From: Escherichia phage vB_EcoM_C2-3
Length of the DNA: 64,000 nt
Direction: 5' to 3' (one strand)
Sequence record: OK076929.1
In this document: positions 2,994 to 63,492 of the stretch, piece by piece
Position numbering within the stretch: the stretch's first letter is position 1
Layout: each line of letters opens with the position of its first letter
Made by a program: the position numbers and the translations under genes
The notes under the pieces: model-generated
What the model was told of the DNA's origin: nothing
The model's input: the letters and a program-made list of their open reading frames with translations, nothing else
Database searches by the model: none

Positions 2994-3023
2994 GTTTACA
3001 CAGGCTCATGATTGAGATATTAT
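2994..3023 (+). promoter_or_regulatory. early promoter (GTTTAC, 18 bp, TATTAT) with -10 inside inverted repeat
   Basis: gtttac 2994-2999, tattat 3018-3023; ggctcat/atgagcc inverted repeat flanks -10. Confidence 0.5.
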
Positions 3024-3049
3024 GAGCCTATAACTTTGAGGAGAACATT

Positions 3050-3382: not shown

Positions 3383-3412
3383 GTTTACAAACTCTTGGGA
3401 GTAGAGTATAAT
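3383..3412 (+). promoter_or_regulatory. early promoter (GTTTAC, 18 bp, TATAAT) with inverted repeat around -10
   Basis: gtttac 3383-3388, tataat 3407-3412, gggagta/tactccc repeat. Confidence 0.5.
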
Positions 3413-3456
3413 ACTCCCACGGATTATAAAACCCTTAATTAACTAAAGGAAATGTT

Positions 3457-4056: not shown

Positions 4057-4076
4057 AGGGGCTTCGGCCCCTATTA
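4057..4076 (+). terminator. hairpin (ggggc-ttcg-gcccc), weak T-tract
   Basis: UUCG tetraloop stem directly after stop codon; short U-tract. Confidence 0.4.
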
Positions 4077-9476: not shown

Positions 9477-9506
9477 GTTTACTTTTCCTCTTGACTGTGG
9501 TATAAT
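9477..9506 (+). promoter_or_regulatory. early promoter upstream of regB
   Basis: gtttac 9477-9482, 18 bp, tataat 9501-9506. Confidence 0.55.
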
Positions 9507-13654: not shown

Positions 13655-13679
13655 TAGTCTCCTTCGGGAGACTTTTTTC
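13655..13679 (+). terminator. intrinsic terminator (agtctcc-ttcg-ggagact + TTTTTT)
   Basis: 7-bp stem, UUCG loop, T6 run. Confidence 0.65.
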
Positions 13680-14140: not shown

Positions 14141-14335
14141 ATGCTAACACGTGAACAGTTTGAAAAAATCATTAAATTAGCACGTGATATTGAAATAGAT
14201 TCATACCAATTAGCAGTTGAGCATTGTGAAGGATATTCATACGACGGTATAGAAGCAGCTAAAAAGGATTTGGATAAATCCAAAGCTAAGTTAGTTCAAT
14301 ATCTTGAAATGATTAGGTGGAATAATGAAAACTGA
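14141..14335 (+). CDS. hypothetical protein (64 aa)
   Basis: ORF track. Confidence 0.45.
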   Translation: MLTREQFEKIIKLARDIEIDSYQLAVEHCEGYSYDGIEAAKKDLDKSKAKLVQYLEMIRWNNEN

Positions 14336-14498
14336 AAAGCAGATGTTTTTAATGAAACTAATTGAAGAATATGCTAATGCAGTTTCTGACTATGAGTATT
14401 CTGCTCGGGAAAGAGGTACAGCTTTCGCAAAGGAAGAAATGAAAATCATGGTTGATGCTCACACAAAGCTTCAGAATTTTATTGAAAACGCCATTTAA
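14325..14498 (+). CDS. hypothetical small protein (57 aa)
   Basis: Overlap-coupled small ORF below size cutoff. Confidence 0.35.
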   Translation: MKTEKQMFLMKLIEEYANAVSDYEYSARERGTAFAKEEMKIMVDAHTKLQNFIENAI

Positions 14499-14500
14499 TG

Positions 14501-14537
14501 GTTTACAAGTTGGCAAGATTATGATATAGTAATCTTG
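14501..14537 (+). promoter_or_regulatory. early promoter with -10 inside perfect 8-bp inverted repeat
   Basis: gtttac 14501-14506; caagatta (14514-14521) / taatcttg (14530-14537) flank tgatatag. Confidence 0.5.
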
Positions 14538-14665
14538 TCAACTGCCAAGGAGAAGAGAATGAAAGTTTTGTTTGTTGTGTATGTGATGATTCAATATAAT
14601 TATCCAATGTTTACTTATAATCTGGTGAACAACATTATTGATATTATTCAAAGGAGTATGTAATT

Positions 14666-17226: not shown

Positions 17227-17257
17227 AGGGAGCCTTCGGGCTCCATTTTTTTTTTTA
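17227..17257 (+). terminator. intrinsic terminator (gggagcc-ttcg-ggctcc + T10)
   Basis: UUCG-loop hairpin followed by ten T. Confidence 0.7.
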
Positions 17258-17759: not shown

Positions 17760-17789
17760 GTTTACAGAAGGGTAGTAGTGTGATACTAT
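17760..17789 (+). promoter_or_regulatory. early promoter
   Basis: gtttac 17760-17765, tactat -10. Confidence 0.45.
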
Positions 17790-17825
17790 TACCCTATCAA
17801 AACAAATGTGAAATTGGAGAATAAA

Positions 17826-19200: not shown

Positions 19201-19230
19201 GTTTACAAGACTGTTCCTCTGTGGTACTAT
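19201..19230 (+). promoter_or_regulatory. early promoter (repeat cassette)
   Basis: gtttacaagactgttcctctgtggtactatacaactatcaact identical to the 45896 copy. Confidence 0.55.
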
Positions 19231-19258
19231 ACAACTATCAACTACGGAGGAACACAAA

Positions 19259-19786: not shown

Positions 19787-19841
19787 CCGCTTTATACCAA
19801 GGATGGTATAATGGTTCTAAGCCCTTTTAATTGAGATTATT

Positions 19842-20256: not shown

Positions 20257-21144
20257 ATGTCAGTAGTAATTAATAATGTCAATGCAGTAATTAAATCTTT
20301 AGTTAATAAAAAATTAAATGAATGGACTGTACTTCGTCGTGGAGAGCCAGATAAATTTTTTCATAGATTTAACCCAACTTTGGATTTGAATGTTATTGAC
20401 AGAGATGTTCATGCTGAAATTTTAGATAAATTTAAAGTTGATATTGGGTTTGGGTTAGATAAACATTTGCAACGAACAAACGGATCTGGAATGGGTTTAT
20501 CTAATCGCATCATGAAAGCCCTTAATAAAATTGGAGCGTTGTCTCGTATTAATGCGAGTGAAATCCTTCGCAATTATAATAAAGGATATGACCTTTATGG
20601 TCGACTAATGCCGAAATTATCATTTGACCAAATGATTGCGGATTTGTGGGAAAATCAACGACGATTATTAGCATTAGGCGCTCGATTAGCTAAAGGTCTA
20701 GATAAACAAATGATTTTTAAGACCAATAATACAGAAGACCTTAAATGCTTTAAATTTAGTACTCGTGGAGATGATTATTACATCAGAGCTCGCTCTACAG
20801 ATTATGTTAATATGGGGCATCATCTCTGTTTAGCTTTTGAAGTTTTAAAAGAAGCCGGAACATTAGAATATGTGTCTGGTGCTAAATGTCCGATTGGTTC
20901 AAATTGCATTTTAATTTATCGCCCAGATGAATCCAGTTCAACTAAATTACCTACAAAACCTGTACCAGTTCGCAGTAATGAAAAACATTCTGAACAAATT
21001 GCTTATTTTAATAAGCAGATTGAAGAGCTAAATATTTCTATTCAGCAATATGATGATGAAATTTTCAGACTATCTGGATTGAGTAGTAAAGCTAAATCTG
21101 AGCGTGAAAAATTAATTAAAATTGTCGATTTACTTAAATCTTAA
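20257..21144 (+). CDS. hypothetical protein with C-terminal coiled coil (about 295 aa)
   Basis: Start moved to ATG after GAGGAAAA; first of four consecutive coiled-coil-tailed ORFs. Confidence 0.5.
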   Translation: MSVVINNVNAVIKSLVNKKLNEWTVLRRGEPDKFFHRFNPTLDLNVIDRDVHAEILDKFKVDIGFGLDKHLQRTNGSGMGLSNRIMKALNKIGALSRINASEILRNYNKGYDLYGRLMPKLSFDQMIADLWENQRRLLALGARLAKGLDKQMIFKTNNTEDLKCFKFSTRGDDYYIRARSTDYVNMGHHLCLAFEVLKEAGTLEYVSGAKCPIGSNCILIYRPDESSSTKLPTKPVPVRSNEKHSEQIAYFNKQIEELNISIQQYDDEIFRLSGLSSKAKSEREKLIKIVDLLKS

Positions 21145-21152
21145 GGAACACC

Positions 21153-22175
21153 ATGAAAACTCGTTCTCAAATTGAAGATATGGTTCGTAATGCCAGCTAT
21201 ACTCGTGATGTTATGACATTTTTGTGTGAAAATAATTTAGACCCTGATAAAGTTAATCGTGTTATTCATCACTTTAAGTATACGAATAGCAGCGAATGGG
21301 TGCGTAATTTTAGTAAAGCAGGGTATATTACACAAATGACTGCTCGTGAACAGCTCACCGATTTCTGTAAAACTATTGATTATAAAAATCCTTTGATTGT
21401 TCAAGGCGTTGGTCAAAGTAAGGTTGATTTATCATCTGGATTTTTCAATCCAAATCATTATCGTATTGAATGGAGATTTATTGCTCTGTTCCGTAGACAA
21501 TTAAAGCAAATTTTGTCTACTGCTAGTCGATTAAAAGGCTCTGATATTAACTTAAAGAATCTGAAATTTGATGGTTATACTCTTCAGATGGAAGTAAGAC
21601 CGTTAAAAGAAAATAATAGAACTGCACGAATTAGCTTTAAGCCTAATACTAAAAATTCTCTTTCAATTTGTGAATGTCTTAAATCACAGCTGACAGAAGC
21701 ATTTAAGTATATGGATGTTGTTGCTGCTGTTCAATCTAAGATTTTACCTCGTTTTGAGCGAAATTGGGAACATACAACAACATATGAACTTGATATGATC
21801 GTTTCATTTAAATACGATTTTTTGAGAAAGGACGAAGTCCCGCAAGAGAAAAAGCAGGAAGTGCAAGATATCTTAAATTTATCCAATTACTCATCAAACG
21901 ATCCTAAATTTTGGATGTATAGCTCAAGCAATATAGATGCATGTAAACTTAATAAAGTGAGTTTTCTTCCTACTGAAAATTCAAATTTTAAACCTGTAGA
22001 AAAATGGCACGCTGACGCGATTGAGAAGTCTCTTAAGGCAGTAGATGATGAACTCGTTAAAGCGACCAATGAAGTGCTAGAAGCTGAAAAGGCGTTAGAA
22101 CAAGCTCAGTCAAGGGTTCAAAATCTGACAAAGCAACGTTCTAAACTGAACAATGCACTAAATGCACTGAACTAG
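21153..22175 (+). CDS. hypothetical protein with C-terminal coiled coil (340 aa)
   Basis: ORF track; C-terminal heptad-rich tail. Confidence 0.55.
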   Translation: MKTRSQIEDMVRNASYTRDVMTFLCENNLDPDKVNRVIHHFKYTNSSEWVRNFSKAGYITQMTAREQLTDFCKTIDYKNPLIVQGVGQSKVDLSSGFFNPNHYRIEWRFIALFRRQLKQILSTASRLKGSDINLKNLKFDGYTLQMEVRPLKENNRTARISFKPNTKNSLSICECLKSQLTEAFKYMDVVAAVQSKILPRFERNWEHTTTYELDMIVSFKYDFLRKDEVPQEKKQEVQDILNLSNYSSNDPKFWMYSSSNIDACKLNKVSFLPTENSNFKPVEKWHADAIEKSLKAVDDELVKATNEVLEAEKALEQAQSRVQNLTKQRSKLNNALNALN

Positions 22176-22204
22176 TTTACTTTGCCACAAGGATGTGGTA
22201 TAAT
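22175..22204 (+). promoter_or_regulatory. early promoter
   Basis: gtttac 22175-22180, 18 bp, tataat 22199-22204. Confidence 0.5.
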
Positions 22205-28645: not shown

Positions 28646-29468
28646 GTATTATATAATTTATAAAATAACAAATATAATTAATTCAAAGGAATATATCGGT
28701 GCGCATAGCACCGATAACATAAATGACGGTTATATGGGGTCAGGAACATTGATTCGTGCCGCTTTATTAAAATATGGTAGAAAAAATTTTAATAAAGAAA
28801 TTTTACATGTTTTTGATAATGAAAAACAAATGTATGATAAAGAAGCTGAACTCGTAACCGAAGAGTATTGTCTAAAAGAAAATACATATAATATTAAACC
28901 TGGTGGAAAAGGTGGAACTGCCTATGAACAGACACTTGAACATCGCCGCAAAAATAGTTTAGCAAATAAAGGTAAAAAGAGAACAGAAGAAACTAAAATA
29001 GCTATTTCACGTGCTTTAAAGAAATATAAACGTACGCCAGAGCATCAAGCAAATTTAAATAAAGCCGTAAGCATAGCTATGAAGCGAAAAGATGTTAGAA
29101 GTAAATTAGCTGGAGAGCGGTCTGAGAAAGATAAATTATCTATATCAAACGGTGTTAAAAAATATTACAATTCTTTGAGTGAAGAAGAACGCGAACTTCA
29201 TCGCAAGCGAATTATTGAAGGTAAAAAGAATTCTCCCATGTCATTGGAATCTAGACAAAAGCTTTCAAAAGCTTTAAAAGGACTTCAAGTTGGTTCAAAA
29301 AATCCAATGTATGGAAAAATTTCTCCAACTAGCAAAACCGTTTCAGTTGACGGTATTAAATATGATTCAATTAAAAAGTGCTCAAATGCCATAAAAGTTT
29401 CTAGACATCTTATACTAAAACGCTGTAATTCTACTGATGAAGCTTGGAAAAATTGGATATTATTATGA
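28638..29468 (+). CDS. free-standing GIY-YIG homing endonuclease (Seg-like)
   Basis: N-terminal YYIIYKITN...KEYIGAHS GIY-YIG motif, Lys/Arg-rich DNA-binding tail; overlaps nrdD stop and nrdG start. Confidence 0.7.
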   Translation: MHRYYIIYKITNIINSKEYIGAHSTDNINDGYMGSGTLIRAALLKYGRKNFNKEILHVFDNEKQMYDKEAELVTEEYCLKENTYNIKPGGKGGTAYEQTLEHRRKNSLANKGKKRTEETKIAISRALKKYKRTPEHQANLNKAVSIAMKRKDVRSKLAGERSEKDKLSISNGVKKYYNSLSEEERELHRKRIIEGKKNSPMSLESRQKLSKALKGLQVGSKNPMYGKISPTSKTVSVDGIKYDSIKKCSNAIKVSRHLILKRCNSTDEAWKNWILL

Positions 29469-31641: not shown

Positions 31642-31842
31642 ATGAATCCTGAATCTAAATTATCGCAGCGAATTGCCGAAGCTCGTCGTCAGTTCTTTGA
31701 AAATATGATAGCCCAAGGTATTGATGATGAAGTTTTTCTAAACTGGTTTTGGAATCACAAATATTCAAGTTGCTCAGGAGCAATATTAATATCAGCCGCA
31801 ATGATGTATGAAGGCTGGAAGGGTGCCAAAAAGTTTAGCTAA
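31642..31842 (+). CDS. hypothetical protein (66 aa)
   Basis: ORF track; ATGA overlap. Confidence 0.5.
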   Translation: MNPESKLSQRIAEARRQFFENMIAQGIDDEVFLNWFWNHKYSSCSGAILISAAMMYEGWKGAKKFS

Positions 31843-31860
31843 GGGCTTCGGCCCTTTTTG
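31842..31860 (+). terminator. intrinsic terminator (agggc-ttcg-gccct + TTTTT)
   Basis: UUCG-loop hairpin with T-run. Confidence 0.6.
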
Positions 31861-34037: not shown

Positions 34038-34211
34038 ATGAACATCCAGACTTCTGAAATAGATTATAATAAAATTCGTTCCTCTAAAGTAGAAATGATG
34101 AGACGCTTTAAAGAGTCTCATGATAAAGCTAAAGCAGAAGGAACTATAAAATATAAGCGCATAAAATTTAAAAGTTCTAACGAGCCTCTGTATGGCGTAT
34201 TATGTGGATAG
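34038..34211 (+). CDS. hypothetical small protein (57 aa)
   Basis: Small ORF below size cutoff ending at hairpin. Confidence 0.35.
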   Translation: MNIQTSEIDYNKIRSSKVEMMRRFKESHDKAKAEGTIKYKRIKFKSSNEPLYGVLCG

Positions 34212-34225
34212 GAGCTTCGGCTCCT
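34211..34225 (+). terminator. hairpin (ggagc-ttcg-gctcc), weak terminator
   Basis: UUCG-loop stem; poor T-run. Confidence 0.35.
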
Positions 34226-34277
34226 ATATTGCTTTATAAATTTTTGGTAAAATAAACCAAAACAAAGAGGATATTAA

Positions 34278-35480
34278 ATGAAAGTATGTATTTTTATGGC
34301 TCGAGGTCTTGAAGGTTGCGGTGTAACTAAATTTTCTCTTGAGCAGCGTGATTGGTTTATTAAAAATGGTCATGAAGTAACTTTGGTTTATGCTAAAGAT
34401 AAATCATTTACTCGTAATTGTGCGCATGATTATAAATCATTTTCAATTCCGGTTTTATTGGCAAAAGAATACGATAAAACACTTAAGCTGGTAAATGATT
34501 GTGATATTCTAATTATCAATTCAGTTCCTGCTACTTCAGTTGAAGAAGACACTATTAATAACTATAAAAAAATTATTGATAACATTAAACCTTCGGTTCG
34601 TGTTGTAGTTTATCAACATGACCATTCTTCTCTTTCTTTGCGCCGAAATTTGGGATTAGAAGAAACTGTTCGTCGAGCTGATGTTATTTTTAGTCATTCT
34701 GATAATGGCGATTTTAATAAAGTTCTGATGAAAGAATGGTATCCTGAAACAGTTTCTCTGTTTGATGATATTGAAGAAGCACCGACAGTATATAACTTTC
34801 AGCCTCCTATGGATATTGCGAAGGTTCGGTCAACCTACTGGAAAGATGTTTCTGAAATTAACATGAATATCAACCGTTGGATTGGTCGTACGACTACATG
34901 GAAAGGTTTTTATCAGATGTTTGATTTTCATGAAAAACATCTTAAACCTGCAGGACTAAGTACTATTATGGAAGGTCTGGAACGTTCTCCAGCGTTCATT
35001 CCTATTAAAGAAAAAGGAATTCCATACGAGTATTATCGTCTTCATCAAGTAGACCAAATTAAAATTGCTCCTAATTTGCCAACGCAAATTCTTGACCGTT
35101 ATGTAAATAGCGAAATGCTTGAACGCATGAGTAAATCCGGATTTGGTTATCAGCTGAGTAAGTTGGACAAAAAATATCTACAACGTTCTTTAGAATATAC
35201 TCATCTCGAGCTTGGTGCATGTGGAACAATTCCGGTATTTTGGAAATCTACTGGCGAAAATTTAAAATTCCGTGTTGATAATACTCCTTTGACCTCGCAT
35301 GATAGCGGTATCATTTGGTTTGATGAAAATGACATGGAATCAACATTTGAACGTATTAAAGAACTGTCATCTGACCGAACTCTTTATGACCGTGAACGCG
35401 AAAAAGCTTATGAATTTTTGTATCAGCATCAAGATTCAAGCTTCTGCTTTAAAGAACAGTTTGACATTATTACAAAATAA
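34278..35480 (+). CDS. a-gt: DNA alpha-glucosyltransferase
   Basis: 400 aa, recognised as T4 alpha-gt. Confidence 0.9.
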   Translation: MKVCIFMARGLEGCGVTKFSLEQRDWFIKNGHEVTLVYAKDKSFTRNCAHDYKSFSIPVLLAKEYDKTLKLVNDCDILIINSVPATSVEEDTINNYKKIIDNIKPSVRVVVYQHDHSSLSLRRNLGLEETVRRADVIFSHSDNGDFNKVLMKEWYPETVSLFDDIEEAPTVYNFQPPMDIAKVRSTYWKDVSEINMNINRWIGRTTTWKGFYQMFDFHEKHLKPAGLSTIMEGLERSPAFIPIKEKGIPYEYYRLHQVDQIKIAPNLPTQILDRYVNSEMLERMSKSGFGYQLSKLDKKYLQRSLEYTHLELGACGTIPVFWKSTGENLKFRVDNTPLTSHDSGIIWFDENDMESTFERIKELSSDRTLYDREREKAYEFLYQHQDSSFCFKEQFDIITK

Positions 35481-35497
35481 AGGGCTTCGGCCCTTTA
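35481..35497 (+). terminator. hairpin (agggc-ttcg-gccct)
   Basis: UUCG-loop stem directly after a-gt stop. Confidence 0.5.
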
Positions 35498-37123: not shown

Positions 37124-37974
37124 AGAATTTTAAACTTGACATTAATGATGAATTTTTAATAAAGGAATTAGTTGAAAAATTAGCGTTGAGTGAAGAAGAC
37201 GCCAAGTCTTACATTAATTTTATTTCTATGAATTCAACTGTTAAAACTCCAGGTAAAACGGAAGCACATCACGTGCTTCCTAAATCAATATTTCCTGAAT
37301 ATTTAAAATCTACATGGAATTTAGTTAATTTAAGTCATTTTAATCATTTTAAAGCACATTTCTTATTAGCAAAAGGTAAAAATGGAAAAATGCTAAATGC
37401 TTTAAATAGAATGATGTCAGGAAAAACATATAAAAATTTATCTTTAGCCGAAGTTGATTTAATAGCTGCTGAATATAGTTTTATAAAACAAGATGTAAGT
37501 GACACAATATCAAAAAGGCTTCAACAATATTATTCAAATCCGCAAAATAGAAATGCTGCTAGAGAAAGGGCATTAAAATATTTTTCAGTAGCAAAAAATA
37601 GGAAAGATAACAAAGAAAGATTAAATAGTTTTAAAACAAAACAAAAAATTTCAATGGCTTCAAGGGAATGGTTTAATAACGAAGAAAATAAAATTAAACA
37701 CCAAAAGGCTGTTCGTGCTGCTTTATCAAAACCTGAATATAAAATAGCTATATCAAATTCAGTAGCTGCTAGTTGGAAAAATCCGGAGATTAGAAAAGCT
37801 CATATAGCATCTCGACGAAAAGGCTATCATTGGGATAATAAAGATAAATTGTATGAATTGTGGATATCATATAATCGTCCTAAACATGTGATGTTTAGGA
37901 AAATGTTAGTTAAGAACGGATATCCAATAGAGGCTTCATTACAGGCTTTAGTTAAAGAATTTTCTTCATTGTGA
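37120..37974 (+). CDS. free-standing HNH homing endonuclease
   Basis: HNH-like motif HHVLPKS...NLVNLSHFNHFKAH; GTG start overlapping upstream stop; between 47 and 46. Confidence 0.65.
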   Translation: MKNFKLDINDEFLIKELVEKLALSEEDAKSYINFISMNSTVKTPGKTEAHHVLPKSIFPEYLKSTWNLVNLSHFNHFKAHFLLAKGKNGKMLNALNRMMSGKTYKNLSLAEVDLIAAEYSFIKQDVSDTISKRLQQYYSNPQNRNAARERALKYFSVAKNRKDNKERLNSFKTKQKISMASREWFNNEENKIKHQKAVRAALSKPEYKIAISNSVAASWKNPEIRKAHIASRRKGYHWDNKDKLYELWISYNRPKHVMFRKMLVKNGYPIEASLQALVKEFSSL

Positions 37975-39672: not shown

Positions 39673-39684
39673 TTTATAAGAGAT

Positions 39685-39710
39685 TATGCTTTAATTTATT
39701 AGAGTATAAT
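39685..39710 (+). promoter_or_regulatory. MotA-dependent middle promoter candidate
   Basis: MotA box TGCTTTA at 39687-39693, 11 bp, TATAAT at 39705-39710. Confidence 0.5.
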
Positions 39711-39727
39711 CTCTATGGAGGAAAAAC

Positions 39728-41060: not shown

Positions 41061-41077
41061 AGGGCTTCGGCCCTTTA
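41061..41077 (+). terminator. hairpin (agggc-ttcg-gccct)
   Basis: UUCG-loop stem after gene 45 stop; modest T-run. Confidence 0.45.
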
Positions 41078-43005: not shown

Positions 43006-43023
43006 AAGGGGCTTCGGCCCCTT
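43006..43023 (+). terminator. hairpin (aagggg-cttcg-gcccctt)
   Basis: UUCG-loop stem after regA. Confidence 0.45.
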
Positions 43024-50470: not shown

Positions 50471-50807
50471 AGATGATTTAGATTTAGATCTAGAAATTAT
50501 CGATGAATCCCCCTCTTCGGAGGGGGAAGAAGAAAGAAAAGAACGTCTTTTTAACGAGTCTCTTAAGATAATTAAATCTGCCATGGAAAATGTTATCCAG
50601 GAGATTGTCATTAAACTAGAAGATGGTTCTACACACATTGTGTATGTGACAAAATTAGATTGGGTTGATGGAAAGGTTGTAATGGACTTTGCTGTTCTTG
50701 ACCAAGAAAGAAAAGCTGAGTTAGCTCCTCATGTAGAAAAATGTATTACAATGCAACTGCAAGATGCATTTAATAAAAGGTCAAAGAAAAAATTTAAATT
50801 CTTTTAA
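50463..50807 (+). CDS. 40: head vertex assembly chaperone gp40
   Basis: Position between uvsX and 41; start moved to ATG 50463. Confidence 0.7.
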   Translation: MNKDDLDLDLEIIDESPSSEGEEERKERLFNESLKIIKSAMENVIQEIVIKLEDGSTHIVYVTKLDWVDGKVVMDFAVLDQERKAELAPHVEKCITMQLQDAFNKRSKKKFKFF

Positions 50808-50816
50808 GGAGTAAGT

Positions 50817-52244
50817 GTGGTAGAAATTATTCTTTCTCATCTCATATTTGATCAAGCTTATTTTTCAAAAGTTTGGCCATATATGGATTCAGAATATTTT
50901 GAAAGTGGTCCAGCTAAAAATACATTCAAATTAATTAAATCCCATGTTAATGAGTATCATAGCGTTCCATCTATTAATGCGTTAAATGTTGCATTAGAAA
51001 ATAGTTCATTTACTGAAACAGAATATTCTGGTGTAAAAACACTTATTTCAAAACTGGCTGATTCTCCAGAAGACCACAGCTGGTTAGTAAAAGAAACAGA
51101 AAAATATGTTCAGCAAAGGGCGATGTTTAATGCTACGTCTAAAATAATCGAAATTCAAACTAATGCTGAGCTTCCTCCGGAAAAACGAAATAAGAAAATG
51201 CCAGATGTAGGTGCTATTCCTGACATCATGCGCCAAGCATTATCAATTTCATTTGATAGCTACGTTGGTCATGATTGGATGGATGACTATGAAGCGCGTT
51301 GGCTATCTTATATGAATAAAGCTCGTAAGGTTCCATTTAAACTCAGAATTCTAAACAAAATTACTAAAGGCGGAGCTGAGACTGGAACACTGAACGTTTT
51401 AATGGCTGGCGTTAACGTTGGTAAATCATTAGGATTGTGTTCATTAGCGGCAGATTATTTACAGCTCGGACATAATGTTCTTTACATTTCCATGGAAATG
51501 GCAGAAGAAGTCTGTGCTAAACGTATTGACGCTAATATGCTTGATGTTTCTCTTGATGACATTGATGATGGGCATATTTCTTACGCTGAATATAAAGGAA
51601 AAATGGAAAAATGGCGTGAGAAATCTACCCTTGGTCGTTTAATCGTTAAACAGTATCCTACTGGTGGAGCAGACGCTAACACATTCAGGTCTCTCTTGAA
51701 TGAATTGAAGCTCAAGAAGAATTTTGTTCCAACAATCATTATTGTCGACTATCTAGGTATTTGTAAATCTTGCCGCATTAGAGTTTATTCAGAAAATAGT
51801 TACACAACTGTTAAAGCTATCGCAGAGGAATTGCGTGCTCTGGCTGTTGAAACCGAAACTGTTCTTTGGACTGCAGCTCAGGTTGGTAAACAGGCTTGGG
51901 ATTCTTCCGATGTTAACATGAGCGATATTGCAGAATCTGCTGGTCTTCCAGCAACAGCTGATTTTATGCTTGCGGTCATTGAAACCGAGGAGCTAGCAGC
52001 TGCTGAACAACAACTTATTAAGCAAATCAAATCACGATATGGTGATAAGAATAAGTGGAATAAGTTTTTGATGGGTGTTCAAAAAGGAAATCAAAAATGG
52101 GTAGAAATTGAACAAGATTCTACTCCAACTGAAGTGAGTGAAGTAGCAGGTTCACAACAGATTCAGGCTGAGCAGAATCGCTATCAAAGAAATGAATCCA
52201 CTCGAGCTCAGTTAGATGCTTTGGCAAATGAATTAAAATTTTAG
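50817..52244 (+). CDS. 41: replicative DNA helicase gp41
   Basis: 475 aa, Walker A GVNVGKS, recognised as T4 gp41; GTG start. Confidence 0.95.
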   Translation: MVEIILSHLIFDQAYFSKVWPYMDSEYFESGPAKNTFKLIKSHVNEYHSVPSINALNVALENSSFTETEYSGVKTLISKLADSPEDHSWLVKETEKYVQQRAMFNATSKIIEIQTNAELPPEKRNKKMPDVGAIPDIMRQALSISFDSYVGHDWMDDYEARWLSYMNKARKVPFKLRILNKITKGGAETGTLNVLMAGVNVGKSLGLCSLAADYLQLGHNVLYISMEMAEEVCAKRIDANMLDVSLDDIDDGHISYAEYKGKMEKWREKSTLGRLIVKQYPTGGADANTFRSLLNELKLKKNFVPTIIIVDYLGICKSCRIRVYSENSYTTVKAIAEELRALAVETETVLWTAAQVGKQAWDSSDVNMSDIAESAGLPATADFMLAVIETEELAAAEQQLIKQIKSRYGDKNKWNKFLMGVQKGNQKWVEIEQDSTPTEVSEVAGSQQIQAEQNRYQRNESTRAQLDALANELKF

Positions 52245-52280
52245 TTTACAAGCTGACAAGACTATGGTATAGTAGTCTTG
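52244..52280 (+). promoter_or_regulatory. early promoter with -10 inside perfect 8-bp inverted repeat
   Basis: gtttac 52244-52249; caagacta (52257-52264) / tagtcttg (52273-52280) flank tggtatag. Confidence 0.5.
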
Positions 52281-52302
52281 TTGGTTAAATGAGGAGATTG
52301 TT

Positions 52303-52485
52303 ATGGAATTAGTAAAGGTAGTTTTTATGGGGTGGTTTAAGAATGAAAGCATGTTTACTAAAGAAACCACAATGATGAAAGATGACGTTCAATGGGCTAC
52401 TACTCAATATGCTGAAGTTAATAAAGCATTAGTTAAAGCTTTCATTGATGACAAGAAAGTATGTGAAGTAGATTGCCGAGGATAA
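52303..52485 (+). CDS. dmd: Dmd (discriminator of mRNA degradation; antitoxin against RnlA/LsoA)
   Basis: 60 aa, recognised as T4 Dmd. Confidence 0.85.
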   Translation: MELVKVVFMGWFKNESMFTKETTMMKDDVQWATTQYAEVNKALVKAFIDDKKVCEVDCRG

Positions 52486-52744: not shown

Positions 52745-52746
52745 CT

Positions 52747-52776
52747 GTTTACTTTTGTTGAAAATTGAGATACTAT
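52747..52776 (+). promoter_or_regulatory. early promoter
   Basis: gtttac 52747-52752, 18 bp, tactat. Confidence 0.45.
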
Positions 52777-52804
52777 ATAAACATAAACTACTGAGGAGAT
52801 TATC

Positions 52805-53098
52805 ATGAAAAAATTTATCTTTGCTACAATTTTTGCTTTAGCTTCTTGTGCTGCTCAGCCTGCTATGGCAGGTTATGATAAAGATTTGTGTGAATGGTCT
52901 ATGACTGCGGATCAGACTGAAGTTGAAACTCAAATTGAAGCAGATATTATGAATATCGTTGAGCGCGATCGTCCTGAAATGAAAGCTGAAGTGCAAAAAC
53001 AGCTTAAGTCTGGTGGTGTAATGCAGTATAATTATGTTCTGTATTGCGATAAAAACTTTAATAACAAAAATATCATCGCTGAAGTGGTAGGTGAGTAA
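52805..53098 (+). CDS. sp: Spackle periplasmic protein Sp
   Basis: 97 aa with signal peptide, recognised as T4 Sp. Confidence 0.8.
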   Translation: MKKFIFATIFALASCAAQPAMAGYDKDLCEWSMTADQTEVETQIEADIMNIVERDRPEMKAEVQKQLKSGGVMQYNYVLYCDKNFNNKNIIAEVVGE

Positions 53099-53636: not shown

Positions 53637-54665
53637 ATGTCATCAATACCTTGGATTGATAATGAGTTTGCATATCGTGCATTAGCTCATTTACCTAAAT
53701 TCACACAAGTAAATAATAGTTCAACTTTTAAATTACGGTTTAGATGCCCAGTTTGTGGAGATTCAAAAACCGACCAAAATAAAGCCCGTGGATGGTATTA
53801 TGGTGATAATAATGAAGGAAATATTCATTGTTATAACTGTAACTATCATGCGCCAATCGGAATATATTTAAAGGAGTTTGAACCTGATTTATATCGTGAG
53901 TATATCTTTGAAATAAGAAAAGAAAAAGGTAAAAGTCGTCCAGTAGAAAAACCTAAAGAACTTCCTAAACATCCTGAGAAGAAAATAATTAAATCTCTTC
54001 CGTCATGTGTTAGATTAGATAAACTGACGGAAGACCATCCAATTATAAAATATGTAAAAGCTCGTTGTATTCCAAAGGATAAATGGAAATATCTTTGGTT
54101 TACAACCGAATGGCCTAAATTGGTTAATAGCATAGCACCGGGAACATATAAAAAGGAAATACCTGAGCCTCGTCTTGTTATTCCAATTTATAATGCTAAT
54201 GGAAAAGCTGAGTCTTTTCAAGGACGTGCATTAAAGAAAGATGCTCCTCAAAAATATATCACCATCAAAGCTTATCCTGAGGCAACAAAAATATATGGAG
54301 TCGAACGAGTTAAAGATGGTGATGTATATGTTCTAGAAGGACCTATAGATTCACTTTTTATTGAAAATGGTATAGCTATTACGGGTGGTCAATTAGACCT
54401 AGAAGTTGTTCCATTTAAAGATAGACGTGTGTGGGTTTTAGATAATGAACCTCGTCATCCTGACACTATTAAGCGAATGACTAAATTAGTTGATGCAGGA
54501 GAAAGGGTTATGTTTTGGGATAAATCTCCCTGGAAATCAAAAGATGTTAATGATATGATTAGAAAGGAAGGTGCAACCACTGAACAAATTATGGAATATA
54601 TGAAAAATAATATTGCCCAGGGGTTGATGGCTAAAATGCGGCTATCTAAATATGCTAAGATTTAA
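53637..54665 (+). CDS. 61: DNA primase gp61
   Basis: 342 aa; zinc finger CPVCGDSK...CYNC; recognised as T4 gp61. Confidence 0.95.
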   Translation: MSSIPWIDNEFAYRALAHLPKFTQVNNSSTFKLRFRCPVCGDSKTDQNKARGWYYGDNNEGNIHCYNCNYHAPIGIYLKEFEPDLYREYIFEIRKEKGKSRPVEKPKELPKHPEKKIIKSLPSCVRLDKLTEDHPIIKYVKARCIPKDKWKYLWFTTEWPKLVNSIAPGTYKKEIPEPRLVIPIYNANGKAESFQGRALKKDAPQKYITIKAYPEATKIYGVERVKDGDVYVLEGPIDSLFIENGIAITGGQLDLEVVPFKDRRVWVLDNEPRHPDTIKRMTKLVDAGERVMFWDKSPWKSKDVNDMIRKEGATTEQIMEYMKNNIAQGLMAKMRLSKYAKI

Positions 54666-56097: not shown

Positions 56098-56105
56098 TAA
56101 TTCAA

Positions 56106-56129
56106 GGACTCCTTCGGGAGTCCTTTTTT
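56106..56129 (+). terminator. intrinsic terminator (ggactcc-ttcg-ggagtcc + TTTTTT)
   Basis: 7-bp stem, UUCG loop, T6. Confidence 0.7.
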
Positions 56130-57568: not shown

Positions 57569-58039
57569 ATGATTGAAGTAGCAAAACATTATTCAATAGA
57601 ATTTATGTCTAAAGAAGGTAAATCAGTAAATACACTTGACAAAAAGTGCTCATTAATTATTCCTTTAGCAGAAAATCCGGATATTTTAATTAAAGATATA
57701 AAAGAAAGAAAATACCCAGAAAATGTTATTCTAATTATAAAGCATACTGAAGATATTTTGCAGAATACTGATTCACCGTTTTCTTCTTCTGAAGCTTTAA
57801 CTATTAAAGGCTATAAAAGAGCTCATGAATATGGTCTTTTTGACCTGTTTGAAGACGATAAAGTTAAATTAGCGAGTCAACCTTCTAAAAGTAAAACATT
57901 CATTATTGAAGATATTAAAGATATAAATGCATTCGTTAAGATGGTCTGGGCTCATTTTGATGTTGGACTACGCTGGAGAATGTCCGAAGAAGAAAGAAAG
58001 ATTATTGAAGCTAATCGTCAATTTGGTTTTTATCGCTAG
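57569..58039 (+). CDS. hypothetical protein (156 aa)
   Basis: ORF track. Confidence 0.5.
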
Positions 58040-58047
58040 GAATTAAT

Positions 58048-58230
58048 ATGGATTTATTTGAGATGTTAGAAGATAATCATTCTACGAATATCCAGAATGA
58101 TTCTAGTGATTATAAGAAAGAGTACCGTATAGTATTACAGAATTATGGAATTGAAGCCCCAGATGCTCTTCTAGAAGAACTAGCTTCATACCATCTTGAC
58201 CCTCCGCCCTGGGCTCCCTGGGCAAAATAA
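58048..58230 (+). CDS. hypothetical protein (60 aa)
   Basis: ORF track. Confidence 0.45.
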   Translation: MDLFEMLEDNHSTNIQNDSSDYKKEYRIVLQNYGIEAPDALLEELASYHLDPPPWAPWAK

Positions 58231-58241
58231 TTCAAAAAGTT

Positions 58242-58271
58242 GTTTACTTTCCTTTCTAACGATGATATGAT
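58242..58271 (+). promoter_or_regulatory. early promoter
   Basis: gtttac 58242-58247, tatgat -10. Confidence 0.45.
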
Positions 58272-58297
58272 AGCTTCTGAAGTATACGGAGGCTATC

Positions 58298-58921
58298 ATG
58301 ATTATTAATCTTGCAGATGTTGAACAGTTATCTATAAAAGCTGAAAGCGTCGATTTTCAATATGATATGTATAAAAAGGTCTGTGAAAAATTTACTGACT
58401 TTGAGCAGTCTGTTCTTTGGCAATGTATGGAAGCTAAAAAGAATGAAGAGCTTCATCGGCAATTGAATAAAATCATTAAAAAGCATTTAACTAAATCACC
58501 TTATCAATTATATCGTGGTATATCAAAATCGACAAAAGAACTCATTAAAGATTTACAAGTTGGAGAAGTGTTTTCAACGAACAGGGTAGATTCATTTACT
58601 ACTAGTTTGCACACAGCATGTGGGTTTTCTTATGTTGAGTATTTCACTGAAATAATATTTCGCTTAAAAACTGATAAAGCTTTTAATTATTCTGACCATA
58701 TCAGCGATATTATACTTTCTTCTCCTAATACTGAATTTAAGTATACATATGAAGATACTGATGGATTAGATTCAGAGCGTACTGATAACTTAATGATGAT
58801 TGTGCGTGAACAAGAATGGATGATTCCAATTGGAAAGTATAGAATAACTTCTATTTCAAAAGAAAAATTACACGATTCATTTGGAACATTTAAAGTTTAT
58901 GATATTGAGGTAGTTGAATGA
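58298..58921 (+). CDS. modB: ADP-ribosyltransferase ModB
   Basis: 207 aa; R-S-E ADP-ribosyltransferase signature (YRG, STxS region, EQEWMIP). Confidence 0.75.
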   Translation: MIINLADVEQLSIKAESVDFQYDMYKKVCEKFTDFEQSVLWQCMEAKKNEELHRQLNKIIKKHLTKSPYQLYRGISKSTKELIKDLQVGEVFSTNRVDSFTTSLHTACGFSYVEYFTEIIFRLKTDKAFNYSDHISDIILSSPNTEFKYTYEDTDGLDSERTDNLMMIVREQEWMIPIGKYRITSISKEKLHDSFGTFKVYDIEVVE

Positions 58922-63434: not shown

Positions 63435-63465
63435 TGTTTACTTCCTCGGTTAGTTGTGGTATTAT
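63435..63465 (+). promoter_or_regulatory. early promoter
   Basis: gtttac 63435-63440, tattat 63460-63465. Confidence 0.45.
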
Positions 63466-63492
63466 AACACCATAGCTACTGAGGATAATAAA

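Follow-up and report, generated by a model that had tools for sequence, protein, structure and literature searches.

Palindromes at the -10 boxes of two T4-like early promoters most likely encode hairpins of read-through RNA

Two early promoters of Escherichia phage vB_EcoM_C2-3 (OK076929.1) carry palindromes centered on their -10 boxes. Does such an arrangement mark an operator, to which a shared regulator binds as DNA, or does it encode a structure in RNA? The initial annotation, made from the sequence alone, had named both options and suggested a shared regulator. The window analyzed here, a 64,000-nucleotide stretch of this phage, is that of a Tequatrovirus, with ∼97 to 99% identity to Tequatrovirus genomes and T4 relatives, and the strand shown is the one that gives T4 early-gene transcripts. 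In T4 terms, the two palindromes lie at the mobD.2a/mobD.2 junction (site A) and at the 41/dmd junction (site B).

The palindromes are real and nonrandom, and they belong to a class that is already known from T4-like phages as PeSL ("promoter-early stem-loop") cassettes. What they encode is most likely an RNA hairpin that folds solely on read-through transcripts of the upstream gene; their appearance is not that of sites bound by a common repressor. We assign a probability of about 0.6 to the reading that sites A and B are two diverged PeSL-type copies, each combining an early promoter with a hairpin of read-through RNA that would have a role at the boundary of the upstream message.

Promoter and helix at sites A and B

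The sequences first reported for positions 14501 to 14537 (site A) and 52244 to 52280 (site B) are exact, and a perfect inverted repeat surrounds the -10 region in each; the repeat, given as 8 bp for both sites, is actually 9 bp at site B. Their description as early promoters is also correct. Both are strong sigma-70-type T4 early promoters with the architecture GTTTAC, 18 nt, TGnTATAGT, and at each site the promoter and an RNA hairpin share the same 45 nt. Site A comprises the following features.

14501-14506, + strand: -35 box GTTTAC, with TTTACA at 14502-14507
14508-14522, + strand: hairpin 5' arm, AGTTGGCAAGATTAT, within the promoter spacer, ahead of the predicted start
14514-14521 and 14530-14537, + strand: perfect inverted repeat, CAAGATTA / TAATCTTG
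14522-14530, + strand: extended -10 TGaTATAGT, hexamer at 14525-14530
14529-14543, + strand: hairpin 3' arm, GTAATCTTGTCAACT
14547-14663, + strand: Shine-Dalgarno AAGGAG (14547-14552) and a 34-aa mobD.2-like ORF (ATG at 14559, stop ending at 14663)

The -35 box begins 3 nt past the stop of a 57-aa mobD.2a-like ORF (14325-14498), and 18 nt separate GTTTAC from the hexamer of TGaTATAGT. The extended -10 runs from the final base of the 5' arm across the 6-nt loop GATATA (14523-14528) into the 3' arm, of which it takes in two bases. With the mapped start of the middle promoter P45.2 (see below) as a guide, transcription would begin at about G14537, 7 nt past the hexamer, so that the promoter's own transcript would keep only the last ∼7 nt of the 3' arm. 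Site B is built in the same way, with a start predicted at about G52280.

52244-52249, + strand: -35 box GTTTAC, whose G is the final letter of TAG, the stop of gene 41 (52242-52244)
52251-52265, + strand: hairpin 5' arm, AGCTGACAAGACTAT
52256-52264 and 52273-52281, + strand: perfect 9-bp repeat, ACAAGACTA / TAGTCTTGT
52265-52273, + strand: extended -10 TGgTATAGT, hexamer at 52268-52273, loop GGTATA at 52266-52271
52272-52286, + strand: hairpin 3' arm, GTAGTCTTGTTGGTT
52291-52296, + strand: Shine-Dalgarno GAGGAG, followed by dmd (52303-52485)

In public records, site B bears the label "predicted early promoter" in fPS-90 (one record) and that of a rho-independent terminator, predicted by WebGeSTer and TransTermHP, in SA20RB; annotators thus disagree on whether these same 45 nt are a promoter or a terminator. 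SA20RB contains an additional cassette of a hairpin-promoter and an ORF between GTTTAC boxes, adjoining the operon of site B. An Rfam scan of the window returned 10 tRNAs only, and the hairpins are covered by no family.

At both sites, the palindrome forms the central part of a longer hairpin with a 15-bp stem, which includes G·U pairs, and a 6-nt loop, at about -19 kcal/mol in sense RNA versus -10 to -12 kcal/mol in antisense RNA. Folded as sense RNA, the elements reach -22.2 kcal/mol at site A and -18.9 kcal/mol at site B (z-scores of -5.0 and -3.8). The antisense RNAs are 8 to 9 kcal/mol weaker (-13.6 and -10.1 kcal/mol), and the single-stranded DNAs fold with just -6.7 to -10.2 kcal/mol. 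Of the three forms, sense RNA therefore gives by far the stablest hairpin.

The helix is also maintained by compensatory and wobble substitutions. In an alignment of nine variant sequences of the two sites, 135 of 135 cells are paired; nine of the 15 pairs vary, none is broken, and three are changed on both sides (compensatory double changes). When the 3' partner is slid by 1 to 3 columns as a control, 21 to 67% of the cells pair. The orthologues came from IMG/VR (five dmd loci and 20 pattern matches) and from metagenomes (23 loci, with few new variants); variation among them is small, and the covariation signal comes mostly from the comparison of A with B, that is, from one divergence event plus a few polymorphisms. 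In T4, A and B are ∼86% identical across 43 nt, which bears out the initial view of two near-identical copies; they are clearly paralogous, and their six differences all fall in the stem and are all compatible with pairing. Internal transition mismatches across the promoter helices comprise 24 G·T and one A·C (roughly 12 to 1 with the count restricted to independent helices), an excess that points to a sense-strand structure at the RNA level, with the caveat that a hairpin of sense-strand single-stranded DNA would likewise tolerate G·T.

Could the element nevertheless act as DNA, with the RNA structure incidental? A cruciform or single-strand hairpin might tune promoter melting, or the repeat might be a recombination hotspot at which PeSL cassettes are shuffled. 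PeSLs were earlier proposed as recombination sites that yield mini-circles and indels, the promoter cassettes are dispersed repeats, and the extra cassette of SA20RB sits beside the operon of site B. However, recombination requires homology, not a hairpin, and each sense-strand G·T is an A·C mismatch on the opposite strand, which would weaken a cruciform. The folding energies of the DNA hairpins are modest, and the compensatory changes keep the pairing, not the sequence. We regard a DNA-level role as distinctly unlikely.

Hairpin promoters across the window

Perfect repeats with a stem of at least 8 bp and a loop of 3 to 20 nt number 60 in the window versus 31 ± 5 in Markov shuffles. Taken alone, short-loop perfect repeats of 8 bp are no rarity, and the promoter-specific test is the strong one. 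A helix score of at least 8 was reached by 8/21 GTTTAC-N18-TAnnnT promoters, whereas 54-mers drawn at random from the window reached it in 4.2% of cases (binomial p ∼1e-6). The summed RNA folding energy of 15 promoters was -107 kcal/mol versus -48 ± 7 kcal/mol in shuffles that held the -10 hexamer fixed, and 0 of 300 shuffles reached -107 kcal/mol; the same energy test on the Klebsiella phage KPV15 gave -80 versus -41 ± 6. The enrichment at promoters and the pairing kept across variants confirm that the inverted repeats are nonrandom and conserved. The 21 GTTTAC-type promoters are dispersed over the window and include repeated promoter families. A strong overlapping helix is absent from 13 of them, indicating that the hairpin is dispensable for promoter function and for some junctions.

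Four weaker versions had been listed alongside sites A and B. Those at 2994 and 3383 hold, with a perfect 8-bp repeat each; RNAfold lengthens both stems to 11 pairs, with one bulged base at 3383. The repeats at 19795 and 39678 are real, but these two fit the description only in part. At 19795, the -10 of the element lies in the 3' arm of an 8-bp repeat (19792-19799/19804-19811), and its status as a promoter is uncertain, with neither GTTTAC nor a MotA box nearby. At 39678, the 9-bp repeat belongs to P45.2, a MotA-dependent middle promoter and not an early one, whose start mapped in T4 (33257) corresponds to G39717 here, 3 nt beyond the 3' arm. Comparable elements at 9477, 17760, 19201, 22175, 58242, and 63436 were missing from that list. 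The hairpins at these promoters are as follows.

3002-3029, + strand: P2994 hairpin, type 1; arms 3002-3012/3019-3029, -10 TATTAT at 3018-3023, 3' arm ending at the predicted start
3396-3419, + strand: P3383 hairpin, type 1; TGGGAGTA/TACTCCCA, -10 TATAAT (3407-3412) in the loop
9483-9529, + strand: P9477 hairpin, type 2; 5' arm in the spacer, -10 in the loop, 3' arm over the Shine-Dalgarno (AAGAGGAG)
17769-17795, + strand: P17760 hairpin, type 1; AGGGTAGTAGT/ACTATTACCCT flanking the -10 TACTAT
19212-19254, + strand: P19201 hairpin, type 2; TGTTCCTCTGTGGT/ACTACGGAGGAACA, 3' arm over the Shine-Dalgarno
22185-22198, + strand: P22175 spacer hairpin CCACA-agga-TGTGG, between -35 and -10
39679-39714, + strand: P45.2 inverted repeat; AGAGATTAT/ATAATCTCT, MotA box TGCTTTA at 39687-39693, -10 at 39705-39710
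58267-58299, + strand: P58242 hairpin, type 2; ATGATAGCTTC/GAGGCTATCAT, 5' arm starting within the -10
63451-63478, + strand: P63436 hairpin; -10 TATTAT, RNA at -13.3 kcal/mol sense and -5.6 kcal/mol antisense

The 3' arm at P58242 reaches over the last part of the Shine-Dalgarno and into the start codon (ATG at 58298-58300), of which it includes the A and the T. The 18-nt spacer of P22175 is identical at one early promoter of KPV15 and differs by a single substitution at a second KPV15 promoter (tttaccacaaggatgtgg).

The diversity of these stems bears directly on the shared regulator that had been suggested. In its most explicit form, a dimeric regulator would bind duplex CAAGAYTA-N8-TARTCTTG, cover the -10 region, coregulate both promoters, and perhaps aid early shut-off. 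Two near-identical perfect palindromes centered on the -10 speak for such an operator, as does the wording of reviews, which describe the basis of early-promoter shut-off, a process independent of AsiA, as "not completely understood"; these reviews report no repressor that acts on T4 early promoters. A search of the window for the palindrome found two sites only, at 2/21 early promoters, and the half-site occurs 9 times against 6.9 expected, which is no enrichment. Stems at the same position elsewhere are unrelated in sequence (GGCTCAT, GGGAGTA, AGGGTAGTAGT, and, in a Klebsiella phage, AAGGCCAT). The conserved 15-bp helix requires G·U pairs on the sense strand and is thereby asymmetric as DNA, and its natural variants are RNA compatible, not symmetric. 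The half-sites are centered 16 bp apart, ∼1.5 helical turns, and in Mosigvirus the gene 41 junction has, in place of such an element, a plain UUCG hairpin ahead of the promoter.

The sites do resemble operators that overlap the -10, such as LexA boxes and the operators of phage repressors, in having a palindrome centered on a sigma-70 -10 box. They differ from these in that promoters of this type share no common palindrome, their arms are asymmetric through G·U, and no cognate regulator is known. We conclude that a DNA operator for a shared regulator is very improbable here: unrelated stems elsewhere, an unenriched half-site, a sense-strand helix that depends on G·U, and wobble and compensatory variants all weigh against it. 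The evidence disfavors a common sequence-specific operator, and it is compatible with a structure-specific factor. That a phage or host protein recognizes the palindrome or the hairpin, as a binder of duplex DNA or of RNA hairpins, and thereby aids the AsiA-independent early shut-off would be a long shot.

Read-through RNA at gene junctions

At all eight strong helices, the 5' arm ends 1 to 18 nt upstream of the predicted +1. A promoter's own mRNA would thus be unable to fold the hairpin; only RNA reading through from upstream could. For sites A and B, the geometry and the mapped start of P45.2 together would place the 5' arm in the spacer and the start within the 3' arm or immediately past it. 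The original proposal that the transcript begins inside a hairpin is therefore apt for the DNA, in which the predicted +1 lies in the 3' arm, but not for the promoter's own RNA, which would lack the 5' arm.

The hairpins follow the spacing of genes. An overlapping hairpin is present at 8/12 promoters whose -35 box abuts the upstream stop codon versus 0/9 others (Fisher p = 0.0024). Three roomy junctions have UUCG hairpins with U-runs immediately upstream of the -35 box (13656-13673, 17229-17244, and 56104-56125). At the gene 41 junction, Mosigvirus has GGAGAC-UUCG-GUCUCC, UUU, and then GTTTAC, a hairpin annotated as a terminator in ATK47, and the Jiaodavirus KPV15 has AAGGCCAT-gatact-ATGGCCTT around its -10.

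A further alternative is the absence of any selected function, in which the palindromes would stem from chance or from quasi-palindrome templated mutation and the likeness of A and B from duplication alone. It is true that a window of this composition should hold ∼31 short-loop perfect repeats of 8 bp and that the two sites are paralogues. However, the enrichment at promoters (p ∼1e-6), the confinement of all six T4 differences between A and B to the stem with pairing intact, and the recurrence of the same architecture with unrelated stems in another genus all argue against it, and templated correction predicts perfect Watson-Crick arms, not G·U-rich ones. We give this explanation hardly any credence.

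What would the hairpin do on read-through RNA? A canonical intrinsic terminator at A and B was rejected: no U-run follows the promoter hairpins, which have 0 to 4 T in the next 10 nt (0 at A and 1 at B) versus 8 to 9 after canonical terminators, and a terminator scan at the two sites returned 0 terminator-like sites. Without a U-run, efficient intrinsic termination is unlikely.

Alternatively, the hairpin could be a translational insulator that occludes or isolates the ribosome-binding region on read-through RNA, so that expression of the downstream gene depends essentially on the promoter in front of it. Such control is well established in T4, where late and middle promoters are located within inhibitory hairpins (PMC3014915). 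At P9477, P19201, P58242, and a second ATK47 junction, the 3' arm lies over the Shine-Dalgarno or AUG and the 5' arm upstream of the start; the geometry at P9477 implies that its Shine-Dalgarno is sequestered in read-through RNA only. At sites A and B, by contrast, neither the Shine-Dalgarno, that of the mobD.2-like gene at site A included, nor the AUG is paired when read-through RNA folds; they lie 4 to 5 nt and 16 to 17 nt beyond the helix, and the other type-1 elements have their Shine-Dalgarno 8 to 25 nt away. Direct sequestration of the Shine-Dalgarno, which holds at 9477, 19201, and 58242, was rejected for A and B, and we consider insulation an unlikely account of these two sites. A link between RegB cleavage sites (GGAG) and the hairpin promoters was also set aside, from a reading of the sequence: GGAG Shine-Dalgarnos are common at early genes with and without hairpins.

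We infer instead that the hairpins serve as a boundary, an attenuator, or 3' protection. In the mechanism that we propose, only RNA reading through from gene 41 at site B, or from the mobD.2a-like ORF at site A, would fold the hairpin, which would then form the 3' boundary of the upstream message directly past its stop codon. There it could slow or attenuate RNA polymerase and block 3' exonucleases, standing in for the separate UUCG hairpins or terminators that are used where intergenic space allows. The overlap with the -10 box would be a solution to compaction at junctions where the stop codon lies against the -35 box. As for the palindrome in DNA, it would be a by-product of encoding the hairpin; a role for it in binding protein is unlikely.

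Relation to known stem-loops and promoters

PeSL cassettes were described in T4-like phages by Arbiol et al. 2010 (PMC2839356) and Comeau et al. 2014 (PMC4122927) and were reported for the T4/PST pair, with the promoter consensus TTTACW-N17-TAYWAT. Sites A and B share the promoter form (both are TTTACA-17-TATAGT with TGn), the stable stem-loop that overlaps the promoter (15-bp stems), and the G-T pairs in stems. They share the intergenic position as well: at A, the upstream stop ends at 14498 and the next ATG is at 14559, and at B, the stop overlaps the -35 box and the ATG is at 52303. Like PeSLs, which occur as many dispersed copies concentrated in hyperplastic regions and next to indels, the elements are dispersed and associated with cassette exchange, as judged from the 8/21 strong helices, the promoter families, and the extra promoter and ORF cassette of SA20RB. 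Middle-promoter versions (PmSL) were reported with PeSLs, and P45.2 fits this description. There are also differences. In a figure legend of 2014, the PST stem-loops are said to lie "just upstream" of the promoter, unlike the overlap seen here, and the stem motif AGNA-loop-TCNT is a better fit to P3383 and P17760 than to A and B (PMC4122927). Terminator activity was assayed for one G/C-rich RB49 stem-loop only (PMC2839356, PMC4122927); unlike it, the stems here are A/U rich and have no U-run. The strand asymmetry, the position of the 5' arm upstream of the +1, and the association with abutting stop codons were derived in the present work, not in the PeSL papers.

The closest precedent for the read-through geometry is found at T4 e, soc, 49, and I-TevI, where the promoter lies inside the DNA for the 5' strand of an RNA helix, and long upstream transcripts fold while the promoter's own transcript does not (PMC3014915). 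The 5' strand is likewise upstream of the start in 8/8 strong helices, the starts of A and B being predicted. Those, however, are late or middle promoters with a sequestered Shine-Dalgarno or AUG, whereas A and B are early and their helix stops 4 to 5 nt short; only the type-2 elements at 9477, 19201, and 58242 match in full. The UUCG-tetraloop hairpins and terminators of T4 share the location of A and B, past a stop codon and right before the next early promoter, but they have a G/C-rich stem, a UUCG loop, and a U-run (8 to 9 T in 10 nt) and are separate from the promoter. At A and B, the loop is instead 6 nt long and consists of -10 bases, the stems are rich in A/U and G·U, and there is no U-run.

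None of these results overturns current understanding; their relevance lies mainly in annotation and design, as many strong T4-like early promoters overlap a structure of the upstream message. Editing either the promoter or the hairpin will disturb the function of the other. T4 hairpins that lack a U-run are predicted candidates for attenuators, 3'-exonuclease barriers, and insulators, and the rule of stop codon abutment, together with the sense-strand G·U bias, yields concrete and cheap predictions. PeSL cassettes are also repeats for the exchange of gene cassettes between phages and would, as dispersed copies, be places where such cassettes are swapped.

In the hairpin promoters of the phage N4 virion RNA polymerase and in single-strand promoters such as Frpo of the F plasmid, promoter elements coincide with an inverted repeat, as they do here. 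In those systems, the DNA hairpin is the recognized promoter, whereas A and B are ordinary duplex sigma-70 promoters with a -35 box, TGn, and a -10 box, and, in contrast to N4 and Frpo, a structure in RNA accounts best for their hairpin.

Location, folding and strand asymmetry of sites A and B

Hundreds of Tequatrovirus genomes match the neighborhoods of two early promoters with a palindrome around the −10 element (sites A and B) at 97 to 99.5% identity by megablast; the T4 early-gene strand corresponds to the + strand here. The initial annotation quoted both sites exactly as they stand in the window. Both consist of GTTTAC, an 18-nt gap, and TGnTATAGT, equivalent to an extended −10 promoter of the form TTTACA-17-TATAGT. 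Site A has the annotated 8-bp perfect repeat, whose counterpart at site B measures 9 bp rather than 8; in RNAfold, G·U pairs lengthen each palindrome into a stem of 15 bp with a loop of 6 nt.

Sites A and B and their RNAfold hairpin arms
14501-14537, + strand: site A, at the junction of a 57-aa mobD.2a-like open reading frame (ORF; 14325-14498) and the 34-aa mobD.2 ORF (14559-14663)
14508-14522/14529-14543, + strand: arms of the site A hairpin
52244-52280, + strand: site B, at the junction of the gene 41 (helicase, 50817-52244) stop codon and dmd (52303-52485); T4 20553-20612
52251-52265/52272-52286, + strand: arms of the site B hairpin

The sense RNA folds at −22.2 kcal/mol for A (z = −5.0) and −18.9 for B (z = −3.8), the antisense RNA at −13.6 and −10.1, and single-stranded DNA at only −6.7 to −10.2 kcal/mol. 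Sense orientation folded better in 7/7 hairpin-bearing promoters of the 15 used for the folding-energy test below. When promoters in the window and in its relatives were searched for helices with G·T and A·C scored alike, the internal mismatches comprised 24 G·T and 1 A·C (∼12 to 1 without orthologous duplicates). This excess and the stability of the sense strand fit RNA transcribed from the + strand; neither a two-fold symmetric protein site nor a cruciform predicts such asymmetry.

The near-identity of the two palindromes had been taken to suggest an operator bound by a shared regulator. That reading is not supported: the CAAGAYTA palindrome is found at A and B only, with unrelated stems at the same position elsewhere, its half-site is at background (9 versus 6.9 expected), and what is conserved is asymmetric RNA pairing. 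Nothing in this analysis indicates a structure-specific factor in early-promoter shut-off; one is nonetheless conceivable, because reviews (including PMC3014915) leave this shut-off unexplained.

Pairing is maintained across variants. Site A of T4 is a 14-bp perfect repeat (AGTTGACAAGATTA/TAATCTTGTCAACT), T4 site B has a G-C pair in place of the window's G·U, and the A-to-G and C-to-U changes in IMG/VR and metagenome variants all lie opposite U or G. Nine distinct A/B sequences, when aligned, have standard pairs in 135/135 pair cells; 9 of 15 pairs vary with no break in pairing, and in three of these both partners have changed (twice from U-A to C-G, once among G-C, G·U, and A-U). Sliding the 3′ partner by 1 to 3 columns lowers pairing to 21 to 67%. 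The two T4 sites differ at six positions, all in the stem and all compatible with pairing. Since variation among orthologues is small, much of this covariation signal reflects a single A/B divergence.

Opposite window 14325-14498, T4 (57933-58165) is annotated with a 38-aa mobD.2a and a 116-nt “intergenic” gap in place of the 57-aa ORF; because small sequence changes separate T4 from the window along this stretch upstream of site A, the T4 version may be frameshifted or truncated. A promoter scan picked up a mirror-image site inside site A (minus strand, 14521-14548; TTGGCA-16-TATCAT), probably a by-product of the palindrome and not a real antisense promoter. The start of the window holds a tight cluster of ten tRNA genes (245-1259; Rfam tRNA, 60 to 74 bits), a slightly larger set than the 8 of T4 and 9 of PST counted by Comeau et al. 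(2014).

Enrichment and position of promoter hairpins

At this composition, perfect repeats of 8 bp with 3- to 20-nt loops are not in themselves rare: the window has 60 repeats of at least 8 bp with such loops, against 31±5 expected. Three long ones are a 12-bp repeat at 28762-28797, the longest of the window (CTTTATTAAAAT/ATTTTAATAAAG, 12-nt loop), and 10-bp repeats at 37878-37900 (TCCTAAACAT-gtg-ATGTTTAGGA) and 53996-54034 (TCTTCCGTCA-N19-TGACGGAAGA). At promoters, the inverted repeats noted in the initial annotation are real, and their excess is statistically solid. Among 21 window promoters of the form GTTTAC-N18-TAnnnT, each followed by a Shine-Dalgarno sequence and start codon, eight have a strong helix (ungapped score of ≥8 in the interval from the −35 to 30 nt beyond the −10), compared with 4.2% of random window 54-mers (binomial P ∼ 1e-6). 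RNA folding energies summed over 15 promoters reach −107 kcal/mol, versus −48±7 for shuffles with the −10 hexamer held fixed (0/300 reach −107); in Klebsiella phage KPV15 (Jiaodavirus), the sum over twelve promoters is −80 versus −41±6.

With the transcription start (+1) predicted 7 nt after the −10 hexamer, the 5′ arm ends 1 to 18 nt upstream of +1 in all eight strong helices, so that the hairpins can form only on RNA arriving from upstream. P45.2 provides an anchor. Its repeat, listed as a weak early promoter (39678-39714), belongs instead to a MotA-dependent middle promoter (39679-39714; MotA box TGCTTTA, 11-nt gap, TATAAT) identical in T4. The mapped start, T4 33257 (Hinton 2010; PMC2988021, Table 1), is window G39717, 3 nt past the 3′ arm, and the read-through RNA folds at −19.3 kcal/mol versus −9.1 for the antisense. 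With this repeat, T4 proper has a PmSL-like element (middle-promoter stem-loop), a type that Comeau et al. reported for phage nt-1. Given this mapped start and the predicted ones at A and B, we infer that transcripts initiated at the promoters themselves do not include the 5′ arm. The hairpins sort into three geometries, including types 1 and 2; A and B are type 1, with Shine-Dalgarno and AUG unpaired in the read-through fold.

Hairpin geometries, by position of the GTTTAC box
Type 1 (3′ arm ends at +0 to +7; Shine-Dalgarno free): 2994, 3383, 14501, 17760, 52244, 63436
Type 2 (3′ arm covers Shine-Dalgarno or AUG): 9477, 19201, 58242

Gene junctions and a probable boundary role

Promoter hairpins follow the spacing of genes. 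Where the −35 begins 0 to 12 nt after the upstream stop codon (12 promoters), the overlapping helix is strong at eight and weaker at three others; none of the nine promoters with longer spacers has one (Fisher P = 0.0024). At three of the roomy junctions (13689, 17281, and 56140), a UUCG-tetraloop hairpin followed by 8 to 9 T per 10 nt sits just upstream of the −35 instead. KPV15 leans the same way. The gene 41 junction of Mosigvirus phages LF82-3 and ATK47 reads GGAGAC-UUCG-GUCUCC-UUU and then GTTTAC, the hairpin being annotated as a terminator in ATK47; in KPV15, AAGGCCAT-gatact-ATGGCCTT surrounds the −10. Annotations of site B itself are discordant in the way expected, fPS-90 labeling it a “predicted early promoter” and SA20RB a “rho-independent terminator.” We read these arrangements as one functional slot, a hairpin ending the upstream message that is overlaid on the promoter where intergenic room is absent.

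UUCG-tetraloop hairpins in the window (ten; stems of 5 to 9 bp)
4057-4072, 13656-13673, 17229-17244, 31841-31856, 34208-34227
35478-35497, 41061-41074, 43006-43023, 50508-50527, 56104-56125

The hairpin at 50508 apparently precedes the gene 41 start. Those at 13656, 17229, and 56104 are followed by 8 to 9 T per 10 nt and others by 0 to 4, so that hairpins without a U-run are common at T4 gene junctions. Usual intrinsic termination by the overlapping hairpins is unlikely, as only 0 to 4 T follow them; a tool scan found no terminator-like sites at A and B. Most likely, the hairpin marks a boundary on read-through RNA, where it would pause or attenuate RNA polymerase and shield the upstream message from 3′-exonucleases. 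Type 2 elements would silence translation of the downstream gene on that RNA, as is established for T4 genes e, soc, 49, and I-TevI (PMC3014915).

Relation to PeSL cassettes

As a class, promoter hairpins have been described before, in the phage family that is studied best. Arbiol et al. (2010; PMC2839356) defined promoter-early stem-loop (PeSL) cassettes by an AT-rich stretch, a sigma-70 early promoter, a stem-loop, and Shine-Dalgarno/ATG, and Comeau et al. (PMC4122927) extended the class to T4/PST (TTTACW-N17-TAYWAT) and middle-promoter versions. Sites A and B belong to it, showing all its structural features, with terminator activity predicted at most. Our analysis adds the sense-strand G·U bias, the rule that the 5′ arm always precedes +1, and the stop-codon-abutment rule.

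Between 61.4 and sp, SA20RB (OL960581.1, 17795-18029; compare window 52745-52805) has an extra unit, a 60-aa ORF with a hairpin promoter, GTTTACA-AGCTGATAGA-N16-TCTATCAGCT, a 10-bp perfect repeat around TATAGT. GTTTAC −35 boxes flank the insertion, the arrangement that an exchange between promoter cassettes should leave and one that matches the shuffling role proposed for PeSLs. In the window, a ∼45-nt early-promoter cassette (GTTTACAAGACTGTTCCTCTGTGGTACTATACAACTATCAACTA) recurs near-verbatim at three or more loci (2657, 19201, and 45896; partly 17281 and 13689); several copies share the AT-rich upstream stretch aaaaatttttcacaaaactGTTTAC, and only that at 19201 runs on into a complementary 3′ arm, over its Shine-Dalgarno. 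These copies are dispersed repeats suited to cassette recombination. The 18-nt spacer of the promoter at 22175 (22181-22198; tttgccacaaggatgtgg, hairpin CCACA-agga-TGTGG) is unchanged at one early promoter of KPV15 and has a single substitution at a second (tttaccacaaggatgtgg); as KPV15 is of a different genus, this implies that the cassette is strongly constrained or has spread horizontally.
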